Assembly: GCF_988242995.1 (NCBI RefSeq)
Contig: NZ_OZ547043.1
DNA: 64,000 bases
Reading direction: 5' to 3' (one strand)
The translations under genes and the position numbers were made by a program. Shown in pieces: positions 48,094-54,218 of the stretch. A model generated the notes under the pieces. The model saw only the letters and a program-made list of their open reading frames with translations. It did no database searches and had not been told where the DNA came from. How positions within the stretch are numbered: the stretch's first letter is position 1; every line of letters starts with the position of its first letter.

Positions 48094-49255
<1,162 letters not shown>

Positions 49256-49296
49256 GCCCGACAGAATTAAATGAGATTGCAGGAAAACTCGGTTAA

Positions 49297-49318
49297 CGGA
49301 GTGATCGAGTTAACATTG
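49297..49318. promoter_or_regulatory. Candidate CRP-binding site upstream of cstA (GTGATCGAGTTAACA)
   Basis: Partial match to TGTGA-N6-TCACA; cstA is known to be CRP-dependent. Assigning this exact site is inference. Confidence 0.3.
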
Positions 49319-49435
49319 TTAAGTTAAATATTGGTTTCAACTCCGATTTACATGGTTGCTGTGTTGTTAAATTGCACAAAGATGTTATAGAAACAAAATG
49401 TAACATCTCTATGGACACGCACACGGATAACAACT

Positions 49436-51541
49436 ATGAACAAATCAGGGAAATACCTCGTCTGGACAGTGCTCTCTGTAATGGGAGCATTTGCTCTGGG
49501 ATATATTGCTTTAAATCGTGGGGAACAGATCAATGCGCTGTGGATTGTGGTGGCGTCGGTCTGTATCTATCTGATCGCTTACCGTTTTTATGGTCTGTAT
49601 ATCGCCAAAAATGTGCTGGCGGTTGACCCGACGCGTATGACGCCCGCGGTGCGCCATAACGACGGGCTGGACTATGTGCCGACGGACAAGAAAGTGCTGT
49701 TCGGTCACCATTTTGCGGCCATCGCCGGAGCAGGTCCATTGGTGGGGCCGGTGCTGGCAGCGCAAATGGGTTACCTGCCAGGGATGATCTGGCTGCTCGC
49801 TGGGGTGGTTCTCGCCGGTGCGGTGCAGGATTTCATGGTGCTGTTTGTTTCTACGCGCCGTGACGGTCGCTCGCTGGGTGAGCTGGTCAAAGAAGAGATG
49901 GGGCCAACCGCCGGGGTGATAGCGCTGGTGGCCTGCTTTATGATCATGGTCATTATCCTTGCAGTACTGGCGATGATCGTGGTGAAAGCCCTGACTCATA
50001 GCCCGTGGGGAACGTATACCGTTGCGTTCACCATTCCGCTGGCGCTGTTTATGGGGATCTACCTGCGCTATCTGCGTCCGGGGCGTATTGGCGAAGTGTC
50101 GGTCATCGGCCTGGTGTTCCTGATTTTCGCCATTATCTCTGGCGGCTGGGTGGCAGAAAGTCCGACCTGGGCACCGTACTTTGACTTTACCGGCGTGCAG
50201 CTGACCTGGATGCTGGTGGGTTACGGCTTCGTGGCGGCGGTGCTGCCGGTGTGGTTGCTGCTGGCTCCGCGTGACTACCTCTCTACCTTCCTGAAAATCG
50301 GGACTATCGTCGGTCTGGCGGTAGGCATTTTGATTATGCGCCCGACGCTGACCATGCCTGCGCTAACTAAATTTGTCGATGGCACAGGCCCGGTATGGAC
50401 CGGTAACCTGTTCCCGTTCCTGTTTATCACCATCGCTTGTGGCGCGGTGTCTGGCTTCCATGCGCTGATCTCTTCCGGTACCACGCCGAAGATGCTGGCG
50501 AACGAAGGGCAGGCGTGTTTTATCGGCTACGGCGGGATGTTAATGGAATCCTTCGTAGCGATTATGGCGCTGGTTTCCGCCTGTATCATCGATCCGGGTG
50601 TGTACTTCGCTATGAACAGCCCGATGGCGGTGCTGGCTCCGGCAGGTACGGCGGATGTGGTCGCTTCTGCAGCGCAAGTGGTGAGTAGCTGGGGATTTAG
50701 CATTACACCAGATACGCTCAACCAGATTGCCAGCGAAGTGGGTGAACAGTCGATCATTTCCCGTGCGGGCGGTGCGCCGACGTTGGCGGTGGGGATGGCC
50801 TACATTCTGCACGGCGCGCTGGGCGGCATGATGGATGTGGCGTTCTGGTATCACTTCGCCATTCTGTTTGAAGCACTGTTTATTCTGACGGCGGTGGATG
50901 CGGGTACGCGTGCTGCGCGCTTTATGTTGCAGGATCTGCTGGGCGTAGTGTCTCCGGGCCTGAAACGGACCGATTCACTGCCTGCTAACCTGCTGGCAAC
51001 GGCGCTGTGCGTACTGGCGTGGGGCTACTTCCTGCATCAGGGGGTGGTCGATCCGCTGGGCGGTATTAACACTCTGTGGCCGCTGTTTGGTATTGCCAAC
51101 CAGATGCTGGCAGGGATGGCGTTGATGCTCTGTGCTGTGGTGCTGTTCAAAATGAAACGTCAACGTTACGCCTGGGTGGCGCTGGTACCAACGGCCTGGC
51201 TGCTGATTTGTACCCTGACCGCAGGCTGGCAGAAAGCGTTTAGCCCGGATGCGAAAGTCGGCTTCCTGGCCATTGCTAATAAGTTCCAGGCAATGATCGA
51301 CAGCGGCAATATTCCGTCGCAGTATACTGAGTCACAGCTGGCGCAACTCGTGTTCAACAACCGTCTGGATGCCGGGTTAACCATCTTCTTTATGGTGGTC
51401 GTGGTGGTTCTGGCACTGTTCTCGATTAAGACGGCACTTGCGGCATTGAAAGAGCCGAAGCCAACGGCGAAAGAAACGCCGTATGAGCCAATGCCGGAAA
51501 ATGTCGAGGAGATCGTGGCGCAGGCGAAAGGCGCGCACTAA
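49436..51541 (+). CDS. cstA: Carbon starvation protein A (peptide/pyruvate transporter) CstA, 701 aa
   Basis: ORF track full-length match. Confidence 0.97.
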   Translation: MNKSGKYLVWTVLSVMGAFALGYIALNRGEQINALWIVVASVCIYLIAYRFYGLYIAKNVLAVDPTRMTPAVRHNDGLDYVPTDKKVLFGHHFAAIAGAGPLVGPVLAAQMGYLPGMIWLLAGVVLAGAVQDFMVLFVSTRRDGRSLGELVKEEMGPTAGVIALVACFMIMVIILAVLAMIVVKALTHSPWGTYTVAFTIPLALFMGIYLRYLRPGRIGEVSVIGLVFLIFAIISGGWVAESPTWAPYFDFTGVQLTWMLVGYGFVAAVLPVWLLLAPRDYLSTFLKIGTIVGLAVGILIMRPTLTMPALTKFVDGTGPVWTGNLFPFLFITIACGAVSGFHALISSGTTPKMLANEGQACFIGYGGMLMESFVAIMALVSACIIDPGVYFAMNSPMAVLAPAGTADVVASAAQVVSSWGFSITPDTLNQIASEVGEQSIISRAGGAPTLAVGMAYILHGALGGMMDVAFWYHFAILFEALFILTAVDAGTRAARFMLQDLLGVVSPGLKRTDSLPANLLATALCVLAWGYFLHQGVVDPLGGINTLWPLFGIANQMLAGMALMLCAVVLFKMKRQRYAWVALVPTAWLLICTLTAGWQKAFSPDAKVGFLAIANKFQAMIDSGNIPSQYTESQLAQLVFNNRLDAGLTIFFMVVVVVLALFSIKTALAALKEPKPTAKETPYEPMPENVEEIVAQAKGAH

Positions 51542-51653
51542 AGTCAGAGTGAGGGGGGATGTGCTGAGCGTTCCCATTACTCTCAGCCCGAGCGTGTTGA
51601 TAGCAATTAAGCCCTCTTAATTCAGGAGGGCATTTGTATTACCGGAGGTTTAG

Positions 51654-51851
51654 ATGTTTGATTCACTGGCAAAAGCCGGAAAATATTTAGGTCAGGCGGC
51701 GAAACTGATGATTGGTATGCCTGATTACGACAACTATGTCGAACATATGCGGGTTAACCATCCCGATCAAACGCCGATGACCTACGAAGAGTTTTTCCGT
51801 GAGCGGCAGGACGCGCGCTACGGTGGAAAAGGCGGCGCGCGCTGCTGCTAA
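51654..51851 (+). CDS. ybdD: Small protein YbdD (DUF466), 65 aa, partner of CstA
   Basis: ORF track [33 protein letters not shown]... Confidence 0.9.
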
Positions 51852-51860
51852 ATGTGTACG

Positions 51861-52949
51861 TCAGGCTTTAAACGATTCCACTTTTTCGAACGCTGCACGC
51901 AACGTATCCGGTGTCAGCGTGACCGGCAGGTAATGAATGGATTCCACCGGACGCAAGGTGTGGGCAATCACTTTGTCGATCTCCGCCTGATTATTGATAT
52001 CCACTTCCAGCTCCGCCAGCGTAGTCGGCAGATGAAAACGCTGATACGCTCCAGTTAATTGCGCCAGCACATCATCCTGACCCAGCAAGGCGCTTTGCAC
52101 CAGAATTCCGTAGGCGACTTTGGTGCCGTGGAGAAACTTCTCGGTTTGCGGCAGCACGGTCAGACCGTTATGCACGGCATGAGCTGCTGCCACACGCGTA
52201 AAACGATCGCCCAGACCACCGACCATTCCACCTCCGGCGATAATCGCATCCACCACATCGCAAAATGATTGCGTTAACTGGTGATTTTGCTGATCGCTCA
52301 GCGCCTGTTCGCTACTGTTTAACAAGACGTCGCGAATGGCCTGTGCATTATTGATCCCCAGTCGCACGGTTAGCGGCAACGTTTCTGGTTGCGGGGCCAG
52401 CACCACCGCTTCATACCATTTCGCCAGCGTGTCACCGATCCCCGCCAGCAGATATTGTTGCGGCGCGTTGAGGATAATCTCCGGTTCCACCAGCACCATA
52501 AAATTGGCGTCGTCGAAAATCTCATAATGCAGCGCCTGTCCGGCATCGTTATACCAGACGGAGAGCGGTGTCCAGGCGGCGCAGGTGGCGGCGATCGTCG
52601 GAACGGCAACAAACGGCAGACCGAGACGGCGGGCGAGGGCTTTCGCGGTGTCGAGCAGTGCGCCGCCGCCGACGCCAATCACCACGCTGCGATCGTCACC
52701 GGACTCAGCCGCCAGTTGTTGTACATCGCTTTCGCTGCAATGGCCGCGAAACAAAATATGCTTTGCCCCTGGCAGTTCAAACGCTGGCGGAAGTTTTGTT
52801 TGCGCCGCAGCAATGGCGCGTTCGCCGTAGATCCACACCGCGCGAGAAAGTTGTTCATCAGTGAAAAAATCGTGCAGGTGATTGAAACTTCCTGGATGTG
52901 AAAAGTAGTTAGCCGGGCCGACGACCACGCGGATAGGATTGTGAGGCAT
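51861..52949 (-). CDS. ybdH: Iron-containing alcohol dehydrogenase-family oxidoreductase YbdH (HcxA), 362 aa
   Basis: ORF track MPHNPIRVVVGPANYFSHPGSFNHLHDFF... Confidence 0.93.
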   Translation of the reverse strand: MPHNPIRVVVGPANYFSHPGSFNHLHDFFTDEQLSRAVWIYGERAIAAAQTKLPPAFELPGAKHILFRGHCSESDVQQLAAESGDDRSVVIGVGGGALLDTAKALARRLGLPFVAVPTIAATCAAWTPLSVWYNDAGQALHYEIFDDANFMVLVEPEIILNAPQQYLLAGIGDTLAKWYEAVVLAPQPETLPLTVRLGINNAQAIRDVLLNSSEQALSDQQNHQLTQSFCDVVDAIIAGGGMVGGLGDRFTRVAAAHAVHNGLTVLPQTEKFLHGTKVAYGILVQSALLGQDDVLAQLTGAYQRFHLPTTLAELEVDINNQAEIDKVIAHTLRPVESIHYLPVTLTPDTLRAAFEKVESFKA

Positions 52950-53057
52950 GTTGTGTTGTCCTTATTGTTTTATTTAGACATCTAAACGTCTTGATTGCCA
53001 AATACTAGCATCGTGTTATAGTGCCTTCAACACGCAACTTCGTCAGGTACAATAAAA

Positions 53058-54218
53058 ATGACAAATAACCCTCTGATTCCACAAAGCAAACTTCCACAAC
53101 TTGGCACCACTATTTTCACCCAGATGAGCGCGTTGGCGCAGCAACACCAGGCGATTAACCTGTCGCAAGGCTTTCCTGATTTTGATGGTCCGCGCTATTT
53201 GCAGGAGCGGCTGGCGTACCACGTTGCTCAGGGGGCAAACCAATACGCGCCTATGACTGGCGTGCAGGCCTTGCGCGAGGCGATTGCTCAGAAAACGGAA
53301 CGTCTGTATGGCTATCAACCGGATGCCGATAGTGATATCACCGTAACGGCAGGGGCGACGGAAGCGTTATATGCAGCGATTACCGCATTGGTGCGCAATG
53401 GTGATGAAGTGATCTGCTTTGATCCCAGCTATGACAGTTACGCGCCCGCCATCGCGCTTTCGGGGGGAATAGTGAAACGTATTGCACTGCAACCACCGCA
53501 TTTTCGCGTGGACTGGCAGGAATTTGCCGCATTGTTAAGCGAGCGCACCCGACTGGTGATCCTCAACACCCCGCATAACCCCAGTGCAACTGTCTGGCAG
53601 CAGGCTGATTTCGCCGCTTTGTGGCAGGCAATTGCCGGGCACGAGATTTTTGTCATTAGCGATGAAGTCTACGAGCACATCAACTTTTCACAACAGGGCC
53701 ATGCCAGCGTGCTGGCGCATCCGCAGCTGCGTGAGCGGGCGGTGGCAGTTTCTTCATTTGGCAAGACCTATCATATGACCGGCTGGAAAGTGGGTTATTG
53801 CGTTGCGCCAGCGCCCATCAGTGCCGAAATTCGCAAGGTACACCAGTATCTGACCTTTTCGGTGAATACCCCGGCACAGCTGGCACTTGCGGATATGCTA
53901 CGTGCAGAACCTGAGCATTATCTTGCGTTACCGGACTTTTATCGCCAGAAACGCGATATTCTGGTGAATGCCTTAAGTGAGAGTCGGCTGGAGATTTTAC
54001 CGTGCGAAGGTACATACTTTTTGCTGGTGGATTACAGCGCCGTGTCTACGTTGGATGATGTTGAGTTTTGCCAGTGGCTGACGCGGGAGCACGGTGTAGC
54101 GGCGATTCCGCTGTCGGTGTTTTGCGCCGATCCCTTCCCCCATAAACTGATTCGTCTCTGTTTTGCCAAGAAGGAATCGACGTTGCTGGCAGCAGCTGAA
54201 CGCCTGCGCCAGCTGTAG
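53058..54218 (+). CDS. ybdL: PLP-dependent methionine aminotransferase YbdL, 386 aa
   Basis: ORF track MTNNPLIPQSKLPQLGTTIFTQMSALAQQH... Confidence 0.95.
   Translation: MTNNPLIPQSKLPQLGTTIFTQMSALAQQHQAINLSQGFPDFDGPRYLQERLAYHVAQGANQYAPMTGVQALREAIAQKTERLYGYQPDADSDITVTAGATEALYAAITALVRNGDEVICFDPSYDSYAPAIALSGGIVKRIALQPPHFRVDWQEFAALLSERTRLVILNTPHNPSATVWQQADFAALWQAIAGHEIFVISDEVYEHINFSQQGHASVLAHPQLRERAVAVSSFGKTYHMTGWKVGYCVAPAPISAEIRKVHQYLTFSVNTPAQLALADMLRAEPEHYLALPDFYRQKRDILVNALSESRLEILPCEGTYFLLVDYSAVSTLDDVEFCQWLTREHGVAAIPLSVFCADPFPHKLIRLCFAKKESTLLAAAERLRQL

Follow-up and report, generated by a model that had tools for sequence, protein, structure and literature searches.

Genes and features of the cstA-ybdD locus

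The window, a stretch of 64,000 nucleotides of contig NZ_OZ547043.1 (NCBI RefSeq assembly GCF_988242995.1), is a segment of an Escherichia coli chromosome carrying entA-entH-cstA-ybdD, the convergent hcxA (ybdH), and ybdL. The cstA gene encodes the pyruvate/proton symporter CstA (701 aa) and ends in a TAA stop codon whose last base is position 51541. The product of ybdD is a 65-aa protein of the YbdD/YjiX family (PF04328), 100% identical to the YbdD of E. albertii and E. coli. Hwang et al. (2018; PMC5847655) have reported that constitutive pyruvate uptake requires both cstA and ybdD and that YbdD is required in CstA-dependent pyruvate uptake; that paper contains nothing on cstA-ybdD transcription, terminators or promoters. 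The two genes are separated by a spacer of 112 nt (51542-51653), and the features of the locus are as follows.

49436-51541, + strand: cstA coding sequence (ORF list; RefSeq annotation of matching E. coli records)
51546-51583, + strand: upstream hairpin of the spacer, 7 + 8 pairs, about -18.6 kcal/mol (spacer fold, best-hairpin search)
51592, + strand: equivalent of the K-12 Term-seq end 632098(+) (PMC7815308, supplementary files 1 and 3), placed by alignment to K-12, whose allele differs
51611-51618, + strand: 5' arm of the hairpin, GCCCTCTT
51619-51623, + strand: loop, AATTC
51624-51631, + strand: 3' arm, AGGAGGGC
51625-51629, + strand: GGAGG within the 3' arm, 24 nt from the ATG at 51654; not a Shine-Dalgarno sequence
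51632-51641, + strand: T-rich tail ATTTGTATTA, a weak, interrupted U-tract with 5 T in its first 8 bases
51644-51648, + strand: GGAGG, the ybdD Shine-Dalgarno sequence as judged from its position, with a 5-nt spacer (TTTAG) to the ATG; outside the hairpin
51654-51851, + strand: ybdD coding sequence (ORF list; RefSeq annotation of matching records)
51861-52949, - strand: hcxA (ybdH), convergent with ybdD (ORF list, RefSeq annotation)

A simple consensus scan found no sigma-70-like promoter driving ybdD in the spacer or in the 3' end of cstA, a result that does not prove absence. The nearest promoter-like sites by consensus scan lie at 50589-50561 (-), 49916-49944 (+) and 52995-53022 (+). Scanning 49000-53200 against Rfam 15 at E-values up to 10 gave zero matches in the spacer and three elsewhere, all to eukaryotic miRNA or lncRNA families and at chance level. 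An ORF of 45 aa at 51483-51620 was rejected, as it lies in another frame, overlaps the end of cstA and is unsupported. There is also an 18-codon ORF from a TTG at 51634 (51634-51690), 4 nt past the GGAGGG of the stem, that overlaps the start of ybdD out of frame. As an upstream ORF it was rejected as coincidental, being out of the ybdD frame and having its Shine-Dalgarno sequence locked in the stem; its equivalent in Citrobacter has only 4 codons, and the ORF is not conserved there.

Anatomy and fold of the hairpin

The hairpin GCCCTCTTAATTCAGGAGGGC occupies 51611-51631 on the + strand, beginning 70 nt past the cstA stop, and its base lies 22 nt from the ybdD ATG. Eight pairs (5 G-C, 2 A-U and 1 G-U) close a loop of 5 nt, AAUUC, and the stem is directly followed on its 3' side by AUUUGUAUUA. 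In a 40-nt context the folding energy is -13.3 kcal/mol (z = -3.32), and none of 200 dinucleotide-shuffled sequences folds equally well. The pairing probability is 0.997 in the context of the spacer (partition-function model). These values confirm the description in the earlier note of a stem-loop followed by a T-rich stretch between cstA and ybdD. The GC-rich stem within the range of 5-14 bp, the short loop and the location downstream of a gene agree with an intrinsic terminator, and a simple consensus scan labels the site terminator-like. The same scan found 5 such sites in the region against 5.4 expected, which is the chance frequency; the pattern match is therefore no evidence by itself, and the evidence consists of the fold statistics and the conservation. 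The hairpin sequence is single-copy in the window and in each of the 1188 genomes that have it.

A second hairpin, absent from the earlier note, lies upstream at 51546-51583, just past the cstA stop, and is the larger of the two. It is specific to Escherichia and is expanded in K-12 by a multicopy Box C-like repeat. At 51576 the window has an A (CCCATT), and the hairpin alleles of ETEC1738, CFT073 and HB37 have CCCCTT at this place. The A weakens the upstream stem (-18.6 versus about -22 kcal/mol).

Termination strength and mapped 3' ends

The T-rich tail has a score nT of 1.9-3.2, and its U-tract is preceded by A and broken by G and A. The d'Aubenton-Carafa d values of the window hairpin and of the hairpins compared with it are given below.

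Window hairpin: -27.3, or +1.2 with the leading A counted in the hairpin
btsT terminator: +20.6 to +31.9
Homologous hairpins of Citrobacter and Salmonella: -11 to -45
K-12 REP: -40
Hairpins of Atlantibacter, C. freundii L028 and Kosakonia: +15 to +26, the scores of canonical terminators

With its terminator-like anatomy and borderline score, the window hairpin may plausibly terminate the cstA transcript in part, as the earlier note had proposed, and by its sequence it would be a weak terminator at best. The closest homologues have strongly negative values, so termination is not the conserved property of this hairpin lineage; what the family has in common is a stable stem-loop in this position. 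Since YbdD is needed for pyruvate uptake and no promoter-like site was found in the spacer or the cstA 3' end, any termination here must be leaky.

In the K-12 spacer, Adams et al. (2021; PMC7815308) have listed a single 3' end, 632098(+), which has few reads and is classed as 'orphan'. This end lies 84 nt upstream of ybdD (PMC7815308). The sequence column of that data set gives 50 nt upstream, the 3' end and 10 nt downstream, as was checked on the sgrS entry. Read in this way, the end lies between the Box C-like hairpin, from which it is 10 nt away on the 3' side, and the REP; it has no U-tract and looks like a trimmed or processed end. The only 3' end in the K-12 spacer thus lies upstream of the position equivalent to the window hairpin, where K-12 has the REP. 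Neither cstA nor ybdD occurs in the TERMITe supplements, and none of cstA, ybdD and yjiX occurs in those of SMRT-Cappable-seq.

On the opposite strand, ybdD-hcxA has been listed as a convergent excludon in K-12 (PMC12288877), and at 631994(-) a Rho termination region has been reported on the strand antisense to the 3' end of cstA (PMC7815308, supplementary file 2). Both reports on K-12 point to antisense transcription that comes from the direction of hcxA over ybdD and the spacer, so that the antisense RNA would traverse ybdD and both spacer hairpins. The hairpin was considered as a minus-strand terminator for hcxA antisense transcripts, with the tail UUAAUUGCUAU, and was rejected in this role at a d of about -22 (hand-calculated with the same formula).

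The paralogous btsT-yjiX pair

E. coli K-12 has a paralogous pair of transporter and small partner genes, btsT (yjiY) and yjiX. Its spacer of 49 nt (- strand; positions 481-529 of the extracted locus L086) reads AGCCCCGC-UUCG-GCGGGGCU followed by UUGUUCUUAU, and its hairpin has a folding energy of -19.8 kcal/mol (z = -3.55). Term-seq has placed a strong 'primary' 3' end of yjiY at 4589097(-) (PMC7815308, supplementary file 1), which falls in the U-tract of this hairpin (...GGGGCUUUGU|). The sister pair therefore has an experimentally supported intrinsic terminator between its transporter and partner genes.

In both pairs a hairpin stands between the gene of a CstA-family transporter and that of a small PF04328 partner, with a GC-rich stem of 8 bp, a tail of the UUUGU type and the start codon about 20 nt further on. 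The window hairpin is the weaker of the two (-13.3 versus -19.8 kcal/mol), its U run is preceded by an A, and its d of -27 to +1 compares with +21 to +32 for btsT. The two hairpins are not alignable, and the likeness is one of architecture and not of demonstrable homology.

Alleles of the spacer in E. coli

The segment 51596-51653 is present in 1188 of 5426 complete E. coli genomes, including CFT073 and Nissle 1917, in each case as a single copy; about 78% of E. coli genomes are without the window hairpin. Identity of 99% or more over 58 nt spanning the hairpin is found in 1046 of the 1188. The stem is intact in the three hairpin-allele sequences inspected (window, CFT073 and HB37), with the differences lying outside it. 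The short upstream hairpin also matches 1188 genomes, the same number, and the two hairpins presumably form one haplotype if both sets of 1188 are the same genomes. Over the upstream segment, 0 of the 1188 haplotype genomes are 100% identical to the window, the best being 98.2% identical.

About 4043 of the 5426 genomes cover at least 80% of a spacer of the K-12 type. The K-12 spacer has 182 nt against 112; its upstream hairpin contains an inserted Box C-like repeat, and the position of the native hairpin is taken by a REP (positions 545-600 and 611-650 of the extracted locus L001; window equivalent 51560-51631). We take the K-12 insert to be 'Box C'-like from the family consensus; the property tested was its copy number only, and it is multicopy, with a median of 14 places per genome. 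A hairpin/G-quadruplex ('HPGQ') element has been listed between cstA and ybdD at the place of the K-12 insert (PMC5100583). NC101 (positions 131-272 of the extracted locus L087) has a third allele with the Box C-like insert and neither the REP nor the native hairpin (GATAGCTATTAATGCACTCTCTCAGCAACCTGATTACCGGAGG). This allele may be the empty site of the REP alleles, retaining a decayed native 5' arm. The stretch GCACTCTCTCAG in the REP and NC101 alleles may be that decayed arm as judged by eye, a reading that a MAFFT alignment did not settle. The allele at locus L004 has no full-length match among the E. coli genomes and belongs to a divergent lineage. At least one strong hairpin is present in the spacer of each E. 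coli allele examined. As the hairpin allele matches Citrobacter and Salmonella, it would most simply be the ancestral state.

REP elements are classical mRNA stabilizers. The REP that occupies the hairpin position in K-12 and in the genomes with a K-12-like allele is, like the window hairpin, a stable stem-loop, and it is without a U-tract. The window hairpin differs from it in being much shorter and in lacking the REP consensus (GCCGGATAAGGCG...CGCCGCATCCGGC), which does not occur in 51596-51653. It also differs in copy number, and with one place per genome in 1188 of 1188 genomes it is not a member of the REP/BIME family. The arms CCCTCT...AGGAGGG, with a pyrimidine-rich 5' side and a purine-rich 3' side, resemble the Box C-like core CCCTCTCCCC...GGGGAGAGGG, and Box C-like repeats occupy the cstA-ybdD spacer in K-12 and in many species of the Enterobacter group. 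The window hairpin is single-copy, unlike the K-12 insert, and has only a shortened core-like stem without the Box C-like outer arms CCCTCACCC/GGGTGAGGG, so it does not belong to that repeat family either.

Spacers of the Enterobacteriaceae and homology of the hairpin

A scan for YbdD with one genome per species gave 80 loci of Enterobacteriaceae, from which the spacers were extracted, folded and searched for the best single hairpin. The spacers are 14-182 nt long, mostly 47-63 nt, and nearly all have one strong stem-loop, of different and unrelated kinds. Citrobacter and Salmonella have the hairpin GCCCTCTCC...GGAGAGGGC. REP-type palindromes occur in Enterobacter, Lelliottia, Leclercia and other Escherichia species (including E. 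albertii and E. whittamii), and several genera have long double palindromes of the Box C-like type. The hairpins of Atlantibacter, one C. freundii genome and Buttiauxella are canonical terminators with a UUUUU tail. No convincing hairpin was found in the 14-20-nt spacers of three species (loci L011, L012 and L060). In short spacers the base of the hairpin usually lies 16-25 nt from the ATG, a range that includes the window. Among 73 species with spacers of 30-200 nt the median folding z was -3.34, and 85% were below -2; length-matched controls from the cstA coding sequence had a median z of -0.35, with 1.4% below -2.

The window hairpin shares its flanks, TTAAGCCCTCT on the left and GAGGGCRTTTGYA on the right, with the Citrobacter and Salmonella hairpins. 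In the alignment with those hairpins, 92.9% of the cells are paired, as against 51-76% with the 3' partner slid, and two stem pairs show compensatory changes (GC/CG and CG/UA). The comparison thus identifies the hairpins as homologous. The E. coli stem lacks the top two pairs of the Citrobacter and Salmonella version, and the homologues have almost no U-tract and a weak, different Shine-Dalgarno sequence (AGG).

Some loci of the scan stand apart. An enterobacterial ybdD (88-98% identity) was found in Streptomyces sp. DH24 (L007), in a 'Bacillota' MAG (L033) and in two 'Proteobacteria' MAGs (L047 and L065). The Streptomyces contig, of 465 bp and low coverage, and the 'Bacillota' contig look like contamination or mis-binning. 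In Tenebrionibacter intestinalis (L037) a script detected no long ORF with its end in the roughly 1.3 kb preceding ybdD; either cstA is not the neighbour of ybdD there or an insertion separates the two.

The Shine-Dalgarno sequence of ybdD

The earlier note had suggested that the GGAGG in the stem could serve as the ybdD Shine-Dalgarno sequence, so that folding might gate translation. It had overlooked the second GGAGG at 51644-51648. Neither suggestion is supported. The stem copy is too far from the ATG to be the natural candidate beside a second copy with a 5-nt spacer outside the hairpin, and neither the Shine-Dalgarno sequence nor the start codon is paired in the stem. The proximal GGAGG is kept in all Escherichia alleles, whether they have the hairpin, a REP or neither, and is conserved in K-12, E. 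albertii, E. whittamii, NC101 and CFT073. Its place and spacing identify it as the real Shine-Dalgarno sequence of ybdD.

In partition-function models, breaking the 3' arm lowers the accessibility of this Shine-Dalgarno sequence and does not raise it, because the freed CCCUCU of the 5' arm pairs with it. In three contexts, freeing the 5' arm changed the accessibility from 0.023 to 0.003, from 0.367 to <0.001 and from 0.014 to 0.008, and a double mutant with compensatory changes returned to the wild-type value. The absolute accessibility ranged from 0.002 to 0.37 depending on the flanking sequence, so only the direction of the mutant effects was used, as a model. Since the hairpin is predicted to form with a probability of 0.997, nothing in the models suggests a switch between pairings.

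Possible roles of the hairpin

The structure of the hairpin, its homology to the hairpins of Citrobacter and Salmonella, the structural conservation of its position in the Enterobacteriaceae and the place of the real Shine-Dalgarno sequence are observations. We read the hairpin as the native intercistronic stem-loop of the cstA-ybdD operon, which would act on the 3' end of cstA RNA and not on the translation of ybdD. Most likely it would serve as an intrinsic terminator, though a weak and leaky one, or block 3'-to-5' exonucleases, or do both. Part of the transcripts would end and be stabilized just past cstA, and read-through transcripts would carry ybdD, which would be translated from its own unstructured Shine-Dalgarno sequence starting 13 nt downstream of the stem. 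We infer in particular that 3' ends form at the hairpin or are protected by it and that ybdD is expressed by read-through. We put the probability of this reading, a native stem-loop acting on the cstA RNA 3' end as leaky terminator and/or exonuclease barrier, at about 0.55. The hairpin is dispensable, because it is absent from about 78% of E. coli genomes, because NC101 has neither hairpin nor REP and because three species have no convincing hairpin.

The hairpin might protect an RNA end without any termination, the ends being made elsewhere by Rho or by RNase E and trimmed back to the stem-loop; RNase E would cut the single-stranded, AU-rich RNA that separates the two hairpins. Protection after trimming is the known mode of action of REP elements, which fill the same position in most E. 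coli and in other Escherichia, Enterobacter, Lelliottia and Leclercia. The homologous hairpins of Citrobacter and Salmonella, which are without U-tracts (d = -11 to -45), and the K-12 end at 632098, 10 nt 3' of a hairpin without a U-tract and like a trimmed end, also point this way. The window tail is, however, more U-rich than those of its homologues, and the 3' end of the paralogous btsT hairpin falls exactly in its U-tract. Pure protection, which overlaps the preferred reading and differs from it solely in whether RNA polymerase stops here, seems to us rather unlikely although worth keeping in view. It is also unlikely that the hairpin is a neutral relic, such as a decayed Box C-like core or an old hairpin adrift in a spacer that is a permissive landing site for palindromic repeats. 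The close resemblance of the Citrobacter arms GCCCTCTCC...GGAGAGGGC to the Box C-like core CCCTCTCCCC...GGGGAGAGGG found in the same spacer of Enterobacter and others would suit such an origin, as would the loss of the top two pairs from the E. coli stem and the absence of the hairpin from most E. coli genomes and of any convincing hairpin from three species. A drifting remnant would fit poorly, however, with a stem intact in the window, CFT073 and HB37, with the near-identity of 1046 of 1188 genomes over the 58 nt, with pairing maintained across genera by compensatory changes, and with structure in the spacers far above the coding control. Each E. coli allele examined has at least one strong spacer hairpin, and the paralogous pair has one too, which also speaks against a relic.

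Two readings place the effect on ybdD translation instead. A gate, in which the hairpin sequesters the Shine-Dalgarno sequence or switches between alternative pairings, could draw on the GGAGG of the 3' arm, on the likeness of the 5'-arm CCCUCU to an anti-Shine-Dalgarno sequence and on the pairing of the freed 5' arm with the real Shine-Dalgarno sequence in the models. It is very improbable given the 24 nt between the stem GGAGG and the ATG, the real Shine-Dalgarno sequence outside a hairpin that is formed almost always, and the strong dependence of the modelled accessibility on context. Moreover, REP alleles keep the same Shine-Dalgarno sequence without the hairpin, and that of Citrobacter and Salmonella is weak and different. 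The cstA gene is a known target of CsrA, and in parallel the GGA of the hairpin (51626-51628) and the GGA of the Shine-Dalgarno sequence (51645-51647) could together serve to repress ybdD; they are 19 nt apart, a spacing within the range bridged by a CsrA dimer. Here the upstream GGA lies in a stem and not in a loop, and conservation of the second GGA does not extend to Citrobacter or Salmonella. CLIP-seq in K-12, which lacks the hairpin, has a peak at the cstA 5' UTR only and none at ybdD (PMC5694010, supplements). Control by CsrA at these two sites thus appears scarcely credible.

Significance for CstA-family transporter operons

Both paralogous pairs of E. coli have a stem-loop, as do about 95% of the 80 spacers of Enterobacteriaceae surveyed here. 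CstA-family/PF04328 pairs could have a selected, sequence-independent requirement for a stable stem-loop some 20 nt ahead of the partner gene, an idea that we offer tentatively and consider doubtful. If it holds, the stem-loop would set the ratio of transporter to partner or yield separately stable cstA and ybdD RNAs. The position would have been refilled over evolution by native hairpins, REPs, Box C-like repeats and canonical terminators, and E. coli would be polymorphic at this position, with fillers of equivalent function.

We found no earlier account of the hairpin itself, and its kind, the intra-operon terminator or stabilizer stem-loop, is well known. Intra-operon terminators and REP stabilizers are long-established principles, and the finding matters little in that respect. 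It is mildly interesting that one position is filled time and again by palindromes of different types, mobile REP and Box C-like repeats among them. The allelic series in E. coli (native hairpin; Box C-like repeat with REP; Box C-like repeat alone) offers a ready-made test of the functional substitution of native intercistronic hairpins by REP elements. Overall, if the hairpin is a leaky terminator or a stabilizer, it would have a part in determining how much CstA is made relative to YbdD, the partner that CstA requires and with which it imports pyruvate.
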